Below are positions 26,363 to 42,261 of a stretch of DNA of 64,000 nucleotides, in pieces (positions within the stretch are counted from its first letter, which is position 1; every line of letters begins with the position of its first letter). Made by a program: the position numbers and the translations under genes. Below the pieces are notes generated by a model. That model worked only from the letters and a program-made list of their open reading frames with translations. It had not been told where the DNA came from and searched no databases. The stretch comes from a bacterium (GTDB lineage: Bacteria > Patescibacteriota > Minisyncoccia > Phycocordibacterales > UBA1550), in NCBI GenBank assembly GCA_030649835.1, contig JAUSES010000029.1, positions 4,130 through 68,129 on the forward strand, written 5' to 3'.

Positions 26363-26565
26363 TGTGTGGGATAGGGGAACCGGGGTCAAGTTTCTAAGCT
26401 CGTAAACTTGCTAAGAACTTTCTCCCCCGGGAGTCCAAGACACAAATCTGCTGATTCGTCTGCGCCCTTTCGCAAGCTCAAGGTGCCCGCCTCCGCCTTT
26501 CGATTCTCCGTACCCGCTACAAAATGCAACAACGCAGAAACTTTCGTTTCAGCGTTGGCATTTTG
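26363..26565 (-). repeat. tRNA-3'-associated fold-back element (Gly-TCC copy)
   Basis: Inverted copy of the tRNA 3' end near 26499-26520 and direct copy at 26363-26380. Confidence 0.7.
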
Positions 26566-26636
26566 TGCGGGATAGGGGAATCGAACTCCTGATTTCAGTT
26601 TGGAAAACTGAAGTTATACCATTTAACTAATCCCGC
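26566..26636 (-). tRNA. tRNA-Gly(TCC)
   Basis: GCGGGATTAGTTAAATGGTATAAC-TTCAGT TT TCC AA ACTGA-...GTTCGATTC...CCCGCA cloverleaf. Confidence 0.95.
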
Positions 26637-26727
26637 AATTTCTTAGAGAATATCAGAAACGACCGAGTTTCGCAACTGCGAAACTCGGTCGTTTCTAACA
26701 CCTACCAACTAAAACCTATCAACTGTT

Positions 26728-27594
26728 TTAGCCCACAATTGACCTCACTTTTGTCACAATCTCATCCAGTGTAAAGTTTGCCTTTACCATAAAATCTTTT
26801 GCTCCGAGTGTCATTGCCTTGTCAAAATCTTCCTTCTGTCCAAGGTTACTCAATATAACAACAGGGATATCAGCTGTCTTTGGTTCATTCTTAATGCGCT
26901 TTAGTATTTCAAAACCATCCACTCCTGGCAAAATAAGGTCACACAAAATTATTTTTGGCTTCCGTTCTGACAAAATGGTAAATGCTGCCTGTGCATCTAT
27001 CGCATTTTGCACATCAAAACCTTCACCTGATAGTTTTCTGACAAGGAGTTCGCGTAAAAATTTATCATCCTCAATAACTAGTATAAATATTTTTTCGCCC
27101 GTAGAAGGGGCGGGTGTTTCGCTTATTTTTTTTTCATCGTTCATAATTTCTTTAGTTACTCCTGTGCTTTTTATATTTTGTGCCCTAATTCCCCATTCTC
27201 CAGGTGGCGCCATCCCTCCACCTGAGAGCACGTGTTCAACTTTTTCTAAAACTTCATTTGGATCAAATACCGCCTTAATTAAAAATTCTCGCGCACCAAG
27301 CTCCTGCGCACGCTTTATTTCTAGTGGCTGGCCAGAGTTTGAAATAATTATAACAGGAATCGTTCTAAGCTCTGCGTCGGCAAAAAGGTCCTCAAGAACC
27401 TCAATCCCCCCTTTGCGAGGCATTAAAATATCCAAAAGAACACAGTCTGGTCGTTTAGCACGGATCTTTTCCATTGCGATAACCCCATCCTCGGCCTTAT
27501 CCACTATGTAGCCATTTTTTTCAAGCTTCTCCGAGAGTACATCTCGCAAGATAGCATCGTCCTCAACAATTATTATTCTTTTTTTCTCAGGCAT
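26728..27594 (-). CDS. Response regulator with two tandem receiver domains and no output domain
   Basis: VEDD...LLDILMP and IEDD...CDLILP receivers. Confidence 0.9.
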   Translation of the reverse strand: MPEKKRIIIVEDDAILRDVLSEKLEKNGYIVDKAEDGVIAMEKIRAKRPDCVLLDILMPRKGGIEVLEDLFADAELRTIPVIIISNSGQPLEIKRAQELGAREFLIKAVFDPNEVLEKVEHVLSGGGMAPPGEWGIRAQNIKSTGVTKEIMNDEKKISETPAPSTGEKIFILVIEDDKFLRELLVRKLSGEGFDVQNAIDAQAAFTILSERKPKIILCDLILPGVDGFEILKRIKNEPKTADIPVVILSNLGQKEDFDKAMTLGAKDFMVKANFTLDEIVTKVRSIVG

Positions 27595-27611
27595 AATATT
27601 TATATATTATA

Positions 27612-29579
27612 TTATGAAATCGTCTTGTTTGCCAGCGAAACATCATTGTGTCCACTTCCGGCCCCAACGATGTTCACAGATTCTCCATTATTTGATACAT
27701 CCTCTTTTGGTATTAGCTCTGTAATGGTTGGTATCAATACGGTAAAAGCTGTTCCCTTGCCTTCAACAGTATCAACCCATATCTGCCCGCCGTGGCGCAC
27801 TACAATACTCTTTACAATAAAGAGTCCTAGTCCTGAACCATCTGTCTGCAAATGAATCACATTTGCAGCACGGAAAAACTTAGAAAATAGTTTTGGAAGG
27901 TCTGTTTTAGGAATACCTACACCCGTATCACTAATTTTTATCTCTATATAATCACCATGTTTACTAACTGAGATGGTGACCCTCCCCCTTGGGAACGTGT
28001 ACTTCATAGCATTATCAACAATGTTCTGGAGCGCTATGAGAAGTTTTTCTGGATCAAAAACAAAGTCAGGAATTGTGCCAGCATGATTTTCAAGCCGTAC
28101 CTCAATATTTCGTTCTTTTGAAGGAAGGACGGTGCTTTCCATAAGCATACTAAGAAGTCTCATAAAGTCATTTTTCCCAAAATCATACCCAAACTTACTA
28201 TTCTCTATACGTGAAACATTAAGTAAGTCATTAACGAGCTGGATCATTTTCTCGTTCGTTTCATACCCACGCCTTAACATACCTTTTTGGGTCTCAGAGA
28301 CTTCACCAAGATCTCCATCAAGTAACAGCTTAAGTACCCATTTCACTCCCGAAAGCGGTGTGCGTAGCTGATGTGCAGCCACAGAGATAAAATCTGATTT
28401 CAGTTTATCAAATTCTCTTAGGCTACCTACCATGGAGTTAAAAACATCTCCGAATTGCCCAATCTCATCGTTAGATGTATGCTCTACAGTTTGATTAAAA
28501 TCACCCCCCGCTATTTTTTTAGCAACCAAAGAGTATTTACGTATAGGACCAACGACCTCCGTTTCCAAAATAACAGCGAGTACAACAACGAGAATTACCG
28601 TAAACACTAAACCAATCCACAACATGCGAAGTTTAAGTTGGTTCACCCGAACCTTATAGACATCTTTAAATACCTGAATTTCGGTTAGTCCTGCTATTTG
28701 TTTTTTCCCGTCTGTTCCAACAAAAAATACTGGATTTAATCGCACAATAACATCTACGGTTTTCCCGTTTGGCGTTATGTATGTACGATCAATTTCAAAC
28801 GGGGCCTTTAGTTCGCCACTCATTACACCAAGACGAGCTTTTTTATACTCAGGAGGATCGTCCTTAGTTTCGTTTGGGTTGTTTTGAGTACTTGCTATAA
28901 TATTTAATTTTTCATCAAAAATGATAAAGTTATTAAAAAAATAGAAGTCTTTTACGCTATTTACAATTCGCTGAAGTACGTCAACACTAATTTTTCTAGT
29001 AACAATAAGTGAGCGCATATTTTGGTCAACAAATCTCGTAACAACCTGAAGAACCTTTTTCGCTTCTTCAATATCTGACAAATTTTTTGAGCGCGACGAG
29101 ACAGAAATATCAATAACATTTACCATTTCTGATGAAGTATCGTCGCCTTTAAAAAACACAGGAACATGTCTCTCAAATTCGTAAAAAGTCCCCCTGTCTT
29201 TTTCTGCACTTATTCCCACTCTTTCAACTTCTATCTTTTTCAAGATTTCCCTGTCCTCAAAACTAATCTCCTTTCCTATCAGCTCGTGGTCTTTTGCAGC
29301 AACATAGTATCCGCGCGCATCATTAACATTAATATATTTCAGCTCAGAGCCTGCTCCAATTTTATCTATTGTTGTTTGTAGAGTATCTTGCTGTATATAA
29401 TTTTGAATAAAGGTACGTTCTATCTGATCCCCCAAAATATTTATCACCCCTTGTGAGTCTTCTAAAACTTGCTGTCGTAGGTTTACCGAAACCATATCTA
29501 CGATAACCCAAAAAACTATCGCGAGAATAAACGTAGTTACCGTAACCAAAACAAGATTTACTTTTGTGCCAAGCTTCAT
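27612..29579 (-). CDS. HAMP-domain sensor histidine kinase
   Basis: 2 TM, DEIGQF, AHQLRTPL, NAMKY, DTGVGI, GSGLGL. Confidence 0.93.
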   Translation of the reverse strand: MKLGTKVNLVLVTVTTFILAIVFWVIVDMVSVNLRQQVLEDSQGVINILGDQIERTFIQNYIQQDTLQTTIDKIGAGSELKYINVNDARGYYVAAKDHELIGKEISFEDREILKKIEVERVGISAEKDRGTFYEFERHVPVFFKGDDTSSEMVNVIDISVSSRSKNLSDIEEAKKVLQVVTRFVDQNMRSLIVTRKISVDVLQRIVNSVKDFYFFNNFIIFDEKLNIIASTQNNPNETKDDPPEYKKARLGVMSGELKAPFEIDRTYITPNGKTVDVIVRLNPVFFVGTDGKKQIAGLTEIQVFKDVYKVRVNQLKLRMLWIGLVFTVILVVVLAVILETEVVGPIRKYSLVAKKIAGGDFNQTVEHTSNDEIGQFGDVFNSMVGSLREFDKLKSDFISVAAHQLRTPLSGVKWVLKLLLDGDLGEVSETQKGMLRRGYETNEKMIQLVNDLLNVSRIENSKFGYDFGKNDFMRLLSMLMESTVLPSKERNIEVRLENHAGTIPDFVFDPEKLLIALQNIVDNAMKYTFPRGRVTISVSKHGDYIEIKISDTGVGIPKTDLPKLFSKFFRAANVIHLQTDGSGLGLFIVKSIVVRHGGQIWVDTVEGKGTAFTVLIPTITELIPKEDVSNNGESVNIVGAGSGHNDVSLANKTIS

Positions 29580-29704
29580 CCCGTTAGAGGTAGGAAACGC
29601 TGTGCGTTTCCGTAGTTATTTAATAAATAGTAATACATCAATGTTTTATTATTATAATCCCGCTCTCTCATTATACAAACCTGATGACCTCTAACGGGAT
29701 TCAT
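29577..29704 (-). mobile_element. Start-codon-associated miniature element, copy 2
   Basis: ATGAATCCCGTTAGAGG...TAACTACGGAAACGCACAGCGTTTCCTACCTCTAACGGG then the kinase ATG. Confidence 0.8.
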
Positions 29705-29824
29705 TTCAATATAGTATAGCAGAATTTTTTTATTAAAAGTGAAGCGTGGGTGTGTATAAATGGAAGAATGGAAAAACAATTGGGCGCCCGCAAGCGGACG
29801 CCCAATAGATCAATTCATTGTCTT

Positions 29825-30349
29825 TCACTCCTTTGGGGAAAAAATCCCTATTGCGTCAAAAAGAAGCTTGTCGAAATCAGAGCCTAAAGGATTCTCCTTT
29901 AAAAGCTCGTCAACACGCATGACTATTTCACTATATCCAAAGGTATATCTAAAAACTGTCAGTTCATCTTCTCTATCCCCAAAAACACGAAAAAAGAACG
30001 GCCCGTCAACCAAAGCAATATCCTTGTCACGATTTCCCCATTGCGCATATTTGGTTGCAGGAATTACAACTGTCTGCATTTTTTCGGATCCCTTGTAAAG
30101 ATCCACATCTGGATTTTCAACCAAACCAAAAATACGGTACCTAACTTGCTCGTGTCCAACGAGCTCTGGGAAGTAGCCTTTGTAAACCTCTCTCAGACAT
30201 ACTCCCTCAACCAAAAATGGTACACCTGCATTCCATCTTACTTCCAAGTTAATCTTATCTCTCATTGCGAGGATTCCACCTAGGTCAACAAATCCATCGG
30301 TATTACCAAGCCCCTCCTCGGGTAAAGGAAAGCCACTATTTCTCTTCAT
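29825..30349 (-). CDS. Hypothetical protein
   Basis: 174-aa ORF with GGAGG Shine-Dalgarno upstream. Confidence 0.65.
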   Translation of the reverse strand: MKRNSGFPLPEEGLGNTDGFVDLGGILAMRDKINLEVRWNAGVPFLVEGVCLREVYKGYFPELVGHEQVRYRIFGLVENPDVDLYKGSEKMQTVVIPATKYAQWGNRDKDIALVDGPFFFRVFGDREDELTVFRYTFGYSEIVMRVDELLKENPLGSDFDKLLFDAIGIFSPKE

Positions 30350-30442
30350 TTGCTACCTCCATTTAAATAATGCACTTCGAAAAAAATAAAAGTTTTATTT
30401 ACACCTACCCTCCCTTACCCTACGCTTGTAGTTGCAAAAGTC

Positions 30443-30686
30443 AATGTGCCAAAACAGCTTCTTTCTGTGGGTACTGTGGTCACGGATCACTAAGTCTCCT
30501 CATTTGCTCTGCAAATTACGGGGACTAAGTATCCGCTACCCCACCTCGCGGTTTTTGAAAAAATCGGAAAGAAAACTTTTTTTAAAAACATCGCTGCGGT
30601 CGGCACAGCAGTACGGAAGCAAAGCTGTTTGCTTCTTAATTCAAACAGTTACGCAAGCTTATGAGTAACTGTTTGAATTACTGTTG
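30443..30686 (-). repeat. tRNA-3'-associated fold-back element (Arg-CCG copy)
   Basis: Shares GAGGTGGGGT.G.GG.TACTTAG...TTAGT.A.CCGTGACC core with 34440-34508. Confidence 0.65.
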
Positions 30687-30758
30687 TGCCCTCAATAGGA
30701 ATCGAACCTATATTGCAAGCTTCGGAAGCTTGAATCCTATCCATTGAATGATGAGGGC
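30687..30758 (-). tRNA. tRNA-Arg(CCG)
   Basis: GCCCTCATCATTCAATGGATAGGAT-CAAGC TT CCG AA GCTTG-...GGTTCGATTCC...GAGGGCA. Confidence 0.93.
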
Positions 30759-30889
30759 TTATAGATAAAACTGTCCTTACTCCGCGCTGAGTTAAATTCC
30801 GTGGAACTCTTTATAGACTAAGCATAACAATGATGTGGGCTTTTTGGTACTGGGGTCCGTTGTACTACGGACGCAAATCCTGTACAGAG

Positions 30890-31933
30890 TTAATTAATCT
30901 CAATATCAATATGTCTCACCGCGGGGATTTCTTTTTTAATTCTTTCTTCTATTTTATCAATACGTTTCCCAATAACCCGTGGCACGCGATCAGTATAGTC
31001 CACGACATACTTGAGAAAATCCTGATAATCCCCTCTTATGGTTTCATAATCTTCCTTAAGCATTCCGCCGTTTGAAAGTTCGCGGAAAAGCGCTGTGCCA
31101 TTCACCTCCACTTCACACTTTGCGCGATATTTCCCAAGCTCTACCACAGATGATTTGAAATCATGTACGCGCTCAATCATGGGGTCCGCAACAAGTATTT
31201 CGATAATTCGCTCCTGCACTTCCTCGGGGATAGACTTTTCCACAAGGAAGCGCTTGTTTTTCATAATCAAAACAACCGCAACCCATGCCAAGAGGACACC
31301 GATGATAATGGAACCACCGGCATCCCACATTGGATTACCCGTAATGTATGAAAGCCAAATAGAAACCATTGCGACAGAAACACCAAAGACTGCGACTCCA
31401 TCTTCATACACCACGGCAAGCACTGTCGGATCACCATCCTGAAATGTCTCCGAAAACGTTGCGTCCTCCCCTCTCGCTTTCCACAACTCACGAAAAGCAA
31501 CAGAGAAAGTAATCATCTCCACCACAAAAGAAACTCCTAATATTATAAATATTTCGGGCTTGAAAAAAATTTCCTCTGGATGAAGCAGTGTGCTGATGCC
31601 GTGATAGACAGTAACTCCAGCACCAACAAAAAATACTCCACAGGCGGAAATTAACGCCCAAAAGAAACGCTCGAGCCCATATCCATATGAAGAATCTTCG
31701 TCGGGTGCGCGGCGACTTTTCACAATTCCCACAAGCAAAAGAGTTTGGTTTGCAGTGTCAGCGAGGCTGTGCACTGCCTCAGAAAAAAGTGAACTTGAAC
31801 CAGAAACAGCAAACCCGATAGCCTTCAAAATAGTAATAACAAAATTACCTAGCAATGCAAATATTACAGAAATAAATCCGTGCTCTTGCATGTAAGGACG
31901 AGCACCTCTATTTAGTTTTTCATTAATATTCAT
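30890..31933 (-). CDS. Cation diffusion facilitator (ZnT9-like) transporter
   Basis: SEAVHSLAD, YGYGLERF, VYED motifs; start codon uncertain. Confidence 0.9.
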   Translation of the reverse strand: MNINEKLNRGARPYMQEHGFISVIFALLGNFVITILKAIGFAVSGSSSLFSEAVHSLADTANQTLLLVGIVKSRRAPDEDSSYGYGLERFFWALISACGVFFVGAGVTVYHGISTLLHPEEIFFKPEIFIILGVSFVVEMITFSVAFRELWKARGEDATFSETFQDGDPTVLAVVYEDGVAVFGVSVAMVSIWLSYITGNPMWDAGGSIIIGVLLAWVAVVLIMKNKRFLVEKSIPEEVQERIIEILVADPMIERVHDFKSSVVELGKYRAKCEVEVNGTALFRELSNGGMLKEDYETIRGDYQDFLKYVVDYTDRVPRVIGKRIDKIEERIKKEIPAVRHIDIEIN

Positions 31934-31976
31934 AGTTTTTACCAAAATCTGGTAAAACATCAATACAAAATTCTAG

Positions 31977-32178
31977 TCGGGGTGCCGTGCCCAAGGCATG
32001 AATCAGCTGATTCAGAATCGAACTCGGCCTAATCTAAATTTCTTATGGAAATTTCCGCGGAAGTGTTTGGACACTTCCGGTTAAAGCTTTAGTCGGGGTG
32101 CCGAGGAATCCCCGCCTGCCATCGCCTGACTGATCCTTACGAAGCGATTGGCAGTGGCGGGCAGGGAACTCGGCCTAT
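31977..32178 (-). pseudogene. Two displaced 3' halves of tRNA-Pro, each carrying a secondary insertion
   Basis: AGGCCGAGTTCGATTCTCGGCACCCCGA-like segments at 31977-32031 and 32093-32178. Confidence 0.85.
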
Positions 32179-32314
32179 ATTCTAGTGAGTGAGCGAAAAG
32201 TAAATACCAATTTACTTTTCCGAGCGAACGACGAATATATTGTACCCAGTTATATCTAAATTTCTAAAGGAAATTTCCGCGAAAGCATCTATATGCTTTC
32301 GGTTAAAGAATGTG

Positions 32315-32385
32315 TCGGGGTGCCGAGAATCGAACTCGGCCTATCTGCTCCCAAAGCAGACGTACTACCGATATACTACACCCCG
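32315..32385 (-). tRNA. tRNA-Pro(TGG), intact inner copy
   Basis: CGGGGTGTAGTATATCGGTAGTACG-TCTGC TT TGG GA GCAGA-TAGGCCGAGTTCGATTCTCGGCACCCCGA. Confidence 0.95.
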
Positions 32386-32399
32386 ACACATTCTTCAAC

Positions 32400-32562
32400 C
32401 CCACGCAGACGTACTACCGATATACTACACCCCGACTAAAGCTTCAACCCCAAAGCAGACGTACTACCGATATATAACTGCATACAATATATCCTGCGTT
32501 CGCTCGAAAATACAAACTCCATGTTTGTATTTTACTCACTCACTTGGATATACTACACCCCG
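32400..32562 (-). pseudogene. Two displaced 5' halves of tRNA-Pro
   Basis: CGGGGTGTAGTATATCGGTAGTACGTCTGC at 32400-32434, and interrupted at 32449-32562. Confidence 0.85.
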
Positions 32563-32647
32563 TTACACGTGAAACGTAGGAGAATATTAGCACACAAGAG
32601 GCAAATTACGAAATTTGAACACTTGGAACCAGAACATGGGGTAGGTT

Positions 32648-33070
32648 TTACAAAACAAAATTTTCCAAAAACTTTACTTTCGCTGTGCGATTTTTGACAT
32701 CTATCTGCACAGTTATCGCATCAAATACCCACTCAATCTGGTCTTCTGGTCGTCTTTCATACAAATAAACCTGTGTCGTTCGCCTTAAACGCTTTAATTT
32801 ATAAGGGTGCAGATTGTCTTCTGCCCTATATTTATCCGTCCTACTGGAAATACATAGGTCCGACCTATGTGAAGTAGGTATGTTTTCACGTGTAACGCTT
32901 TTTACCTCAATAAAATGCAAAATTTTGCCTTTTTTAGCAATAATATCTATTTCCCCGCATTTTCTGAGAAAATTCTGCTCAATTATTGAAAAACCCTTAT
33001 TTTCTAAGTATTTTTGAGCAATATCCTCTCCTAAACGCCCAATTTTCTGCTTTTCCGTCTTTTCAGCCAT
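32648..33070 (-). CDS. YraN/UPF0102 family endonuclease-like protein
   Basis: GRLGEDIA..YL...G, GEIDII, FIEVKS. Confidence 0.9.
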   Translation of the reverse strand: MAEKTEKQKIGRLGEDIAQKYLENKGFSIIEQNFLRKCGEIDIIAKKGKILHFIEVKSVTRENIPTSHRSDLCISSRTDKYRAEDNLHPYKLKRLRRTTQVYLYERRPEDQIEWVFDAITVQIDVKNRTAKVKFLENFVL

Positions 33071-33333
33071 TAAATATAGTGTAGCATCTTGAGCGTTTCC
33101 CGTGAAGCACGCATTTTACGCTTTTTTGATCCGCCAAGCCCCGTCCTTGGCAAGATTGCCAGGGACGGGGCTTGGCGGATTGCTGGCGTTTCCCGTGAAA
33201 CATCCAATTTTAGGACAATTTTAGAGATCAAAATAGACTATTTCACATGAAACCTATATTTATCAAGGTTTTATGGAAAAATATGGGTATTTTAGCACGT
33301 TTTAGGATCTAAAAAGACCGATTTTAATGTCCT

Positions 33334-33363
33334 TTATCAACAGTATCCACATGGTTATCCACA
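33334..33363 (+). promoter_or_regulatory. Three tandem DnaA boxes
   Basis: TTATCAACA 33334, GTATCCACA 33343, perfect TTATCCACA 33355. Confidence 0.65.
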
Positions 33364-33501
33364 GTTTTGGGTCATTTTCCCCATATTTTCCGCCTCAAAC
33401 CGTTGACATGGTGTGTCGGCGTGGTGATTTTGAGAGCAAATGTCCTTTAAAAAATGTGCGAATTTGTATTAAATTGTACTCCTGTGTTATACTTTATACG
33501 T

Positions 33502-34191
33502 ATGCGTACAGACAAAGAGAAGGCGACACAGCTTCGTAGGTTTGGTAAAAGCTATCAGGAAATCGCAGGCGAGCTAGGAATCCCTAAAAGCACTTTATCA
33601 GCGTGGTTTGGCGCCTCTTTGTGGTCACAGAAAATAAAAGATGATCTGAATGTTGTTACACATAGAAAGCACACGATCCGCATAGAAGAGCTCAACAAGG
33701 TGCGTGGGGAACATCTTAGGAATCTTTATATTCAAGCACGACATGAGGCACTTGAGGATTTTGAAATTCTAAAATACCATCCAGCTTTTATTTCAGGTGT
33801 TATGCTCTATTGGGGCGAAGGGGACAAGGCTTCCCTTCACCGCGTATCGCTAACCAACACCGATCCAGCAATGATAAGAATATTCATGGGGTTCCTTAAA
33901 GATGTGTGTGGAGTTGAGGAAAAGAGAATTAAGGCCTGGCTCCTTTTATATCCAGATCTTCAAGAATCTGAGTGCAAAAAATATTGGAAAGAGGAGGCAC
34001 ATTTACAAAATGTAATCTTCAATAAAAGCATGGTAATAGACGGGAGGCATAAAACAAAACGTCTAGGGCATGGTGTTTGCACTGTTGGTGTTTCTAGTAG
34101 ATATTTTAAAGAAAAAATGTTATTGTGGATTTCGTTGTTCCCTGATATGCTTGCAAACAGGGAACTATATGGGAAAGATGCGGATATATGA
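33502..34191 (+). CDS. HTH plus LAGLIDADG-like domain protein, tRNA-adjacent
   Basis: GKSYQEIAGELGIPKSTLSAW HTH; GVMLYWGEGDK..VSLTNTDP LAGLIDADG-like helix. Confidence 0.7.
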   Translation: MRTDKEKATQLRRFGKSYQEIAGELGIPKSTLSAWFGASLWSQKIKDDLNVVTHRKHTIRIEELNKVRGEHLRNLYIQARHEALEDFEILKYHPAFISGVMLYWGEGDKASLHRVSLTNTDPAMIRIFMGFLKDVCGVEEKRIKAWLLLYPDLQESECKKYWKEEAHLQNVIFNKSMVIDGRHKTKRLGHGVCTVGVSSRYFKEKMLLWISLFPDMLANRELYGKDADI

Positions 34192-34256
34192 GTACATATA
34201 TCCGCGACATTCGTGAAAAGTGAATATTATGGGTATACTCACTTTGTCACTCATTT

Positions 34257-34327
34257 GCGGATATAATTTAGTGGTAGAATTCCTCGTTGCCAACGAGAGA
34301 GTGGGAGTTCGATTCTCCCTATCCGCA
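34257..34327 (+). tRNA. tRNA-Gly(GCC)
   Basis: GCGGATATAATTTAGTGGTAGAAT-CTCG TT GCC AA CGAG-...GTTCGATTCTCCCTATCCGCA. Confidence 0.93.
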
Positions 34328-34525
34328 CAATTAAAATTGCCCCGAAAGGGGCTTTTTAATTGTGCGGATAGAGCAAGCCTCCTGCTTGGCTTGCGTGGAG
34401 AATCGAAAGCCGGAATATATTTTTGTAATCAAAAATAATGAGGTGGGGTCGAGGGTACTTAGATTTTTGTGAGTAATGCGATACAAAAAGCTTAGTAACC
34501 CGTGACCGAAAGCCCTATCCGCACA
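34328..34525 (+). repeat. tRNA-3'-associated fold-back element (Gly-GCC copy)
   Basis: Hairpin, inverted TGTGCGGATAG..GGAGAATCGAA, core, then direct copy CCCTATCCGCAC at about 34513. Confidence 0.75.
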
Positions 34526-34579
34526 ATAAATATAAAATAGTCAGCCTCTCTTGAGAGGCTGACTATTTTATATTTATTG

Positions 34580-41331: not shown

Positions 41332-42261
41332 TTATTTATTGTGAAATTTTTTGTGCACATCTCTCAACTGGTTGTCGGTGATGTGGGTGTAGATTTGGGT
41401 GGTGGAAATGTTGGCGTGGCCGAGCATCATTTGGACAGAGCGAATGTCTGCGCCATTTTGGAGAAGGTCGGTGGCGAAGCTATGGCGCAAAATGTGCGGA
41501 GTAACTTTATCCATTATTCCCGCCTTGGTAGCATAAAACTTTACCATGCGCTCAATGGAGCGGGGAGTGAGGCGCGTGGAGCCATCTTCGCGGGTGCGTT
41601 TTGTTTCACTAACAAAAAGCGCATCGTCCATGTCAGTTCTTTTTTTCAAATATGCGGTGATGGCTTTTTTTGCATCATCGGAAATAAATACCACACGTAC
41701 TTTTTCACCTTTTCCTCGTACAGATATTTCGTCACGCGTGAGGTCGATGTCGCGCTGTAGTGCACACAATTCTGAAAGGCGAAGCCCTGTGGAGAAAAAT
41801 AATTCCAAAATCGCTTTGTCACGGAGCTCCTTGATACTTTCGCCGCTGGGCGCATCAAGAAGGCGACGCAGGTCAACCGGTTTCAAAAGGTCAATCGTGC
41901 GCTCGGCTACTTTTGCAAGTTCAATTTTTTCTGGCGCGTACGACTCCACACCGCGCTTTCGCAAATACTTTAAAAAACTCCGCAAAGCAATGAGATAATA
42001 ATTTTGCGTTTTCTTTTTGAGTGTTTCCGCGCGCCCCTCGTGTACTCCGGCGCTTTGGCGGTTGAGCCACAAGCGAAACGTACGCATCATCTCGTCGGTG
42101 ATGTCGCTTGGCACTGAAGCACCACTTGCTACCAAAAATCGGGTGAGGTAACGCTCGTAATTTTCAATTGTATTCAAACTTCTCCCACGTTCTATTTCCA
42201 AATACTCTAAATATTGACGGGCATATTTACCAAGCGGGGTTTGGGGGATATTGTGCGACAT
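41332..42261 (-). CDS. XerC/XerD-family tyrosine recombinase
   Basis: TGLRLSEL, GKGEKVR, HILRHSFATDLL, LGHANISTTQIYTH. Confidence 0.93.
   Translation of the reverse strand: MSHNIPQTPLGKYARQYLEYLEIERGRSLNTIENYERYLTRFLVASGASVPSDITDEMMRTFRLWLNRQSAGVHEGRAETLKKKTQNYYLIALRSFLKYLRKRGVESYAPEKIELAKVAERTIDLLKPVDLRRLLDAPSGESIKELRDKAILELFFSTGLRLSELCALQRDIDLTRDEISVRGKGEKVRVVFISDDAKKAITAYLKKRTDMDDALFVSETKRTREDGSTRLTPRSIERMVKFYATKAGIMDKVTPHILRHSFATDLLQNGADIRSVQMMLGHANISTTQIYTHITDNQLRDVHKKFHNK

Follow-up and report, generated by a model that had tools for sequence, protein, structure and literature searches.

Phages, integrative and conjugative elements, genomic islands and integrase-less remnants that enter tRNA and tmRNA genes cross over in the T-loop or at the acceptor end, restore the gene with a 3' end that they carry and leave the old end behind as a duplicated, direct repeat. 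Insertion sequences of the IS200/IS605 type (IS608, ISDra2 and derivatives without an open reading frame (ORF)) follow another route: they are described as having hairpins at both ends, where a guide 5' of each hairpin foot pairs just 5' of the cut, together with a single active strand, a single-stranded DNA (ssDNA) circle and retargeting through a change of guide (PMC6006769, PMC5934647, PMC5027513). Here we describe an element that resembles both (its circle is a prediction) and that occurs three times in a window of 64,000 nt from a patescibacterial genome (assembly GCA_030649835.1, contig JAUSES010000029.1, positions 4,130 to 68,129; coordinates below count from the first base of the window). 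An earlier note on this DNA had pointed out fold-back trailers behind tRNA-Gly(TCC), tRNA-Arg(CCG) and tRNA-Gly(GCC), and had proposed either a ~200-bp tRNA-targeting element or an anti-tRNA trailer that affects processing. Our analysis makes it very probable that the trailer is mobile and carries both a guide and a replacement gene end.

Read from the crossover (target G-N-N|, element end G-A-C|), a unit runs through the gene end, a first palindrome (HP1), an inverted copy of the gene end, a spacer of one base, mostly a purine, and a two-hairpin core. On sequence grounds, the inverted copy behaves as a guide complementary to the insertion site. Sites were located from positions +2 onward only, the flanking positions being scored afterwards, and this placed 71 of the 87 elements at tRNA and tmRNA genes. 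Guide and target were complementary at −2 in 70/71, at −1 in 68/71 and at +1 in 69/71 of them, and at −3 in 0/71; a G stood at −3 in 71/71 targets and 71/71 element ends, the sole base common to target and element end. The result under an earlier numbering, with 58/75 elements including those at topA, agrees. The guide pairs with positions −2 and −1 although these lie outside the duplication, so a copied repeat cannot explain this pairing. Within the acceptor-end class, where these two bases vary, 14 of 16 elements match, compared with 3.3 by permutation (0/20000), a figure that, like those on covariation given below, is overstated since kin genomes are not independent. Retargeting is visible at two loci (L287, L290), a tRNA-Ala whose +1 base is T and a tRNA-Lys whose +1 base is G: guide, target and right junction shift together there, and the crossover is therefore placed after GTGAC. 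The right end mirrors the geometry of the guide, a GGT at the foot of the last hairpin (HP4) pairing with the terminal bases, and all located targets are sense strands near the 3' ends of RNA or protein genes. A guide of the IS200/IS605 kind is thus present, as two Watson–Crick pairs and a G at −3 and not as the tetranucleotide code of IS608. It also reaches 6–20 nt 3' of the cut, depending on the target, whereas the engineered extension of the IS608 guide is reported to pair upstream of the target.

Among 24 relatives, tRNA-Gly(GCC) is filled in 14 and empty in 10 (scored by eye), with different cores occupying this same gene, and the 3' end of topA bears the element in 11 of 28 genomes. Since relatives differ in whether an orthologous site is filled or empty, the trailer is, by this comparison, an insertion element; presence/absence polymorphism, suggested in the earlier note as a check, exists at both genes. 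At topA, the guide pairs ~75 nt inside the reading frame and tracks synonymous changes in its target. The two copies of the topA end differ by 74 synonymous and 2 non-synonymous changes over 19 codons at the 7 alignable of the 11 filled sites, the count leaving out three with a changed motif or interruption and one missed by the pattern. A decaying local duplicate would accumulate mostly non-synonymous changes, so both copies appear to have served as functional gene ends while they diverged. The empty end of the nearest relative is most similar to the downstream copy in G014 and G044. As a separate observation, an IS200-like transposase gene is inserted at the topA 3' end of G021 (L025), where the last codons are extended.

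In the window, the copy behind tRNA-Gly(GCC) (34257..34328, plus strand) is a unit of 197 nt (34310..34506, plus strand) comprising the carried tRNA end, HP1, the guide, hairpins HP3 and HP4 and the terminal GTGAC, and its crossover probably lies in the T-loop at 34309/34310 (GTT|CGA). The HP1 palindrome (34329..34361, plus) holds a terminator-like GC hairpin (34339-34352) and a T run. The guide (34362..34407, plus) is interrupted by a nested hairpin, HP2 (34372-34396), and its final two bases reach past the duplicated segment to pair with T-loop bases lying upstream of it. The core (34409..34506, plus; covariance-model match with E 5e-19) consists of HP3, with a 3-bp stem, a G bulge and tandem GA, a GG linker, and HP4 closing on GTGAC. 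The displaced second copy of the tRNA-Gly end follows (34507..34524, plus), its first few bases altered, and a bidirectional palindrome (34525..34578) separates it from the convergent tRNA-Arg(TCG). The unit region is identical to the orthologous stretch in G024 at 209 of 215 bases, and in G007 and G021 the Gly/palindrome/tRNA-Arg(TCG) layout is present as an empty site. The 210-nt unit (30479..30688, minus strand) behind tRNA-Arg(CCG) (30686..30758, minus) belongs to the acceptor-end class: the likely crossover is at the acceptor end (GGG|CAC), the core spans 30479-30600 (E 1e-13) and the guide ends at 30602. Its direct copy comprises three bases only (CAC, 30476..30478, minus), as expected with an acceptor-end crossover. 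The third unit, behind tRNA-Gly(TCC) (26565..26636, minus), measures 201 nt (26383..26583, minus), has a Gly-specific core subtype and a guide at 26499-26520, and is followed by the second copy of the tRNA end (26364..26382, minus). All three trailers are covered with zero differences in the contigs of run X1, which is possibly the source sample itself and hence gives no independent biological confirmation.

The coordinates agree with those of the earlier note, as does the order of parts: tRNA end, palindrome, inverted end (in the Gly copies to the T-loop TCGAA), core, TGAC and direct copy, the last reduced to a few bases in the Arg copy. The likeness it saw between the Arg(CCG) and Gly(GCC) cores is borne out by an alignment score of 34 against a shuffle maximum of 26 (0/1000). 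The kinship it claimed for the Gly(TCC) core is not borne out by alignment: 95/1000 and 381/1000 shuffles reach the scores of that core against the other two, the covariance model of the main core does not detect it, and it represents a separate subtype with four occurrences, all behind a tRNA-Gly end. That the duplicated parts match the local tRNA stands except for the Gly(TCC) guide. Among 442 tRNA ends compared, this guide fits the tRNA-Gly(GCC) end of relative G044 at 19/19 positions and its own at 15/19; because the foreign end fits better, the mismatch points to an apparent hop of the element between isoacceptor genes.

The host genome of the window (G000; 1.06 Mb, 43% GC, 53 ARAGORN tRNAs) has cores of several types behind 23 of the 53 tRNAs by a motif census. 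From 67 copies of the main core we built a covariance model, which gave 31 matches there, of which 17 lie on the same strand and no more than 600 nt behind an ARAGORN tRNA, with ~0.5 expected from the share of sequence; the core is therefore not equally common away from tRNAs. By eye, the remaining 14 mostly follow tmRNA, 5S rRNA, topA, an intron-like RNA end or displaced tRNA ends, and two are unexplained. Across loci, 103 of 152 right-end motifs occur within 400 nt behind a tRNA or tmRNA; 8 lie farther off, 32 are without such a gene in a short flank and 9 without one in a long flank. The gene ends of tmRNA, topA, rpsI and ftsZ host the element as well (the names rpsI, ftsZ, rplL and topA were read off translations, not taken from a family scan). 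The ~200-bp tRNA-targeting element of the earlier note is thus supported by presence/absence at orthologous sites, a covarying core and isoacceptor movement, and its restriction to tRNAs is not.

All 29 genomes of the genus have 7–30 model matches, and 6 of 140 other genomes of the phylum have any. The true breadth across the phylum is likely larger than 6/140, because that scan used stricter filters, scored 27 candidates per genome and covered one core type. The right-end motif is nearly confined to records from Patescibacteria or a subgroup, a statement that covers the best 80 of at least 123 loci. A partial check of G047 (420 of 786 kb read) found the element at 0 of 20 tRNA/tmRNA genes. 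An Rfam scan at gathering score returned tRNAs only and no family for the element, phage and plasmid collections gave no match to it, and six pattern matches in viral contigs were set aside as chance hits inside coding DNA. A literature search of titles and abstract openings, which left out subscription papers and supplements, found no description of the element. Tandem arrays, a unit nested in the HP4 foot of another and cargo genes ending at the right end were all observed; nesting in the HP4 foot would explain altered second-copy junctions such as that of the Gly(GCC) copy. After several units of G181 (L417-L447), the arms and part of the core recur exactly; these are either multimers or assembly artefacts. 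Cargo genes lie inside or before the right end behind tmRNA and tRNA-Ser(GGA) in G000 (C17:4140-4700 and C64:6318-7160). The same genome has a compact, phage-like group of seven divergent tRNAs (C55:769-2257), with CCA mostly encoded and none of these trailers.

A mechanism for such insertions can be proposed. The top strand between the two crossovers would be peeled out as a circle of ~200 nt, predicted to be three-armed, and its guide would capture an exposed sense strand by pairing with the two bases on the 5' side of the cut and a stretch on its 3' side, the G at −3 being read at both sites. Strand transfer would join the gene to the carried end and shove the old end downstream, so that the gene survives; later conversion, nesting and deletion could produce variant junctions, tandem arrays and cargo-bearing remnants. 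Cutting and rejoining of the ssDNA circle would be the work of a predicted HUH-like (5'-phosphotyrosine) enzyme supplied in trans. Such an enzyme is favoured because IS200/IS605 ends likewise hold bases 5' of the top-strand junction by pairing. We consider the chances about even that the trailers are a gene-less guided element that enters gene 3' ends, carries a replacement end and moves as an ssDNA circle through an HUH-like enzyme acting in trans.

Several results weigh against this proposal. No enzyme was found for the element. No Y1 transposase is present in G006 (12 copies of the element), G007 (9) or G042 (28), and 0 of 30 Y1 loci are flanked by element motifs. The proteins common to the element-bearing genomes G000, G006 (573 kb), G181 (568 kb) and G122 (616 kb, incomplete) look housekeeping by inspection, among the matches listed; the threshold of this comparison could miss a strongly diverged enzyme. 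Sixteen of the 87 elements have no locatable site, including the Arg(CCG) copy of the window, which was located under the earlier numbering. At topA, the downstream copy is clearly native at only 2 of 7 sites, G017 showing the opposite and four being ambiguous. There is no leading/lagging bias (filled 27:17, empty 59:36, p = 1; 139 tRNAs, with local GC skew as a proxy), and no circle or empty-site joint was found at the three copies in the run X1 contigs, a material that drops rare forms. Since a replication-strand bias is missing, transcription is a more likely source of the exposed target strand than replication.

Y1 transposases were rejected as the mover, since three element-rich genomes lack them and they come with palindromes of their own. 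Among the matches listed, no Y1 transposase, small GIY-YIG, reverse transcriptase (RT) or LAGLIDADG-like protein was common to the four genomes compared, and no family linked to the element emerged when 993 ORFs from the neighbourhoods of elements were clustered. An IS110 DEDD transposase was present in one of five element-bearing genomes and an IS91-type Y2 transposase in none of five, the control genomes being silent for the latter as well. Because no mobile enzyme is common to the four element-bearing genomes, the enzyme may be a host protein, a transient helper or unneeded.

The first of these options gives an alternative that we consider unlikely, namely that the same element is moved by a housekeeping enzyme of the host, either a Xer-like tyrosine recombinase acting on folded ssDNA, in the style of Xer recombination in CTX phage, or a type IA topoisomerase. 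The lack of a dedicated enzyme common to element-bearing genomes and the presence of a Xer-like gene in them speak in its favour. However, the Xer-like protein (window 41335-42261) occurs in 135 of 141 genomes of the phylum and the core in 7 of 141, which leaves the patchy spread unexplained; as near-universal and uninformative, the Xer-like recombinase was discarded as a lead to the enzyme. The guide, moreover, reads two bases 5' of the top-strand junction, whereas tyrosine recombinases test homology 3' of the cut. The recombinase of the window scores 121 bits, with an integron-integrase cut-off of 265. Integron attC and CTX attP(+) likewise use a folded single strand as recombination substrate, but no RYYYAAC/GTTRRRY boxes were noted in the element (no aimed search was made), and it is the top strand that folds.

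The fold of the core bears on the nature of the mobile molecule. In the core, 93% of cells are paired and 14 of 24 pairs have double-sided changes (slid controls, 25–38%), covariation figures that are inflated because the cores were chosen by patterns demanding some pairing; building a covariance model, the other check suggested in the earlier note, thus yielded a conserved, covarying core. Of the 94 cores, 91 fold better as the top strand than as the bottom one. Apical loops are mostly GNA triloops, with C-GAA-G the most frequent; the motif GA-RY-GNA-RY-GA occurs in the 94 cores 30 times on the top strand and never on the bottom (shuffle mean 0.4), and the closing pair of the GNA motif is kept in 53 of 55 cases. 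GNA mini-hairpin loops are far stabler as DNA than as RNA: d(GCGAAGC) and d(GCGAAAGC) melt at 76.5 °C and r(GCGAAAGC) at 39.0 °C (PMC13037366). These DNA-type mini-hairpins would favour folded ssDNA, and under DNA parameters each unit of the window is predicted to fold as a largely paired, three-armed circle.

It is quite unlikely, in our estimate, that the element moves as RNA, a structured and possibly catalytic transcript that base-pairs with abundant transcripts, inserts into them and whose product is copied back by an outside RT. Targets that are all sense strands near gene 3' ends would suit such a route, as would the absence of replication-strand bias, and tandem GA and G-U pairs also occur as motifs of RNA. 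However, selection for gene survival would give the 3'-end bias too, no UUCG loop is found among the 30 commonest apical loops of the core, where GNA triloops prevail, Rfam offers no match, and an RT was detected in 0 of 5 near-complete element-bearing relatives. The single RT of G000 shows no link to the element. In this the element differs from retroelements (group II introns, retrons, DGRs), which are defined by an RT.

Crossover in the T-loop with a duplicated 3' end is the classic scar of an island, and G000 has nine serine-recombinase matches, five of them facing tRNA ends. Both facts would fit the non-autonomous leftover of an integrative element directed at tRNA genes and moved by an integrase, tyrosine or large serine, with site recognition by the protein; this we consider very unlikely. 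The targets, which include topA and other coding ends, have only G-N-N in common at the cut, and the internal inverted copy of the element covaries with its target. In contrast to tRNA islands, the element measures ~200 nt, has no integrase and serves many tRNAs and coding ends with one core. Large serine recombinases were excluded as the mover, as they form a separate inverted-repeat element; at C8 this recombinase element inserted separately between tRNA-Gly(CCC) and a pre-existing small element, and no such recombinase was found in the 568 kb of G181. On C8 (40384-42560, part in L280) and also on C19 of G000, serine recombinase genes face tRNA ends with ~115-nt inverted repeats around them.

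The other suggestion of the earlier note, in which the trailer is a fixed regulator and its transcript tunes tRNA processing by pairing with the acceptor/T arm, is highly improbable as the primary role. If transcribed, the inverted copy could pair with the tRNA end, and its orientation is always sense; yet the orthologous tRNAs of many relatives are bare, the same geometry is found in protein genes such as topA, and in the Gly(GCC) copy the terminator-like hairpin precedes the guide. Without any mobile unit, template switching during replication at the terminator and T-arm could have produced a local tandem-inversion duplication. This would account for the forward-inverted-forward layout as a fold-back triplication and for arrays that repeat arms exactly, but it is largely refuted by the conserved, non-local core always found at one junction, the recurrence of HP1 families at different tRNAs, the synonymous differences of the topA copies and a Gly(TCC) guide foreign to its locus.

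Returning to the guided insertion element, we compared it with further repeat families. REP/BIME repeats with TnpA(REP) and the Ssn elements with their GIY-YIG enzymes are likewise multi-copy folded ssDNA repeats that are mobilised in trans and form tandem arrays, REP families being tagged by a fixed tetranucleotide (PMC6006769, PMC3733652, PMC11893778). A REP-like GTAG foot is present in only 10 of 94 element cores, and no Y1 or small GIY-YIG gene tracks the element. REP families are also not known to replace gene ends. Small GIY-YIG genes were rejected as the mover, as they lack element ends, and the GIY-YIG gene of L147, which runs into a right end, is read as nested or cargo. Its family (L147/L297-L376; ~90 aa, with hairpin repeats of its own) lies directly behind tmRNA-type ends at 46 of its 55 distinct loci and has an exact end copy of at least 8 nt in three loci only (controls 2/46). 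A minority of its loci run into the element right end, and the 10 of these that were read show neither a left end nor a guide. A tie between CGTC repeats and GIY-YIG genes was not borne out by the GTAG/CGTC repeat paper (0 occurrences). A GIY-YIG ORF also sits within a 16S rRNA gene of G000 (C14:16058-16384), with similar ORFs in RNase P-like and 23S rRNA contexts of relatives (L252, L254, L256). In the window, the inverted ends of a 130-nt segment (29575-29704) resemble those around small GIY-YIG genes elsewhere in the genome; only these ends are shared with many other run X1 contigs, the segment is apparently a derivative without a gene, and at its left end it overlaps a histidine kinase gene at the start codon.

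Two further neighbours of tRNA genes were seen in the window. Just upstream of tRNA-Gly(GCC), a 245-aa ORF (33454-34191), read by eye as helix-turn-helix plus LAGLIDADG-like and without a Pfam/NCBIfam match, terminates in a copy of the tRNA-Gly 5' start, and its homologues adjoin tRNAs in 10 loci. At 31975-32460, two partial 5' copies precede tRNA-Pro(TGG), and repeated direct 3' copies with a different trailer lie behind it; a similar trailer is found behind tRNA-Pro in G006.

Overall, the element lies outside every family whose defining features were testable. Compared with IS200/IS605, it carries a replacement gene end, which is present twice, its target varies with the guide instead of being fixed, no TnpA/Y1 is linked to it, and it lacks the lagging-strand bias of IS608. 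It shares nucleic-acid-programmed target choice with the IS110 bridge RNA, but its guide is one contiguous stretch directed at one strand, and IS110 transposases are confined to the single genome mentioned above. In its working, it would come closest to an IS200/IS605 miniature that has an extended guide and enters genes in the manner of an integrase. A bolder version, which we put forward tentatively and regard as rather doubtful, is a DNA-guided, reprogrammable integrator, in which an ssDNA circle of ~200 nt with guide and repair patch, served by a universal host enzyme or none, would enter any matching G-N-N site.

The element unites two strategies hitherto separate, the base-pair-guided targeting of IS200/IS605 and the harmless entry into essential genes through a replacement end that phage integrases practise, and it packs both into ~200 bases with no gene. 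If it is true that the guide programs the site, it would be a minimal programmable integrator. In these reduced genomes, a large share of the variable DNA downstream of tRNAs would also be explained by the element, which exchanges the final codons of topA and other core genes.

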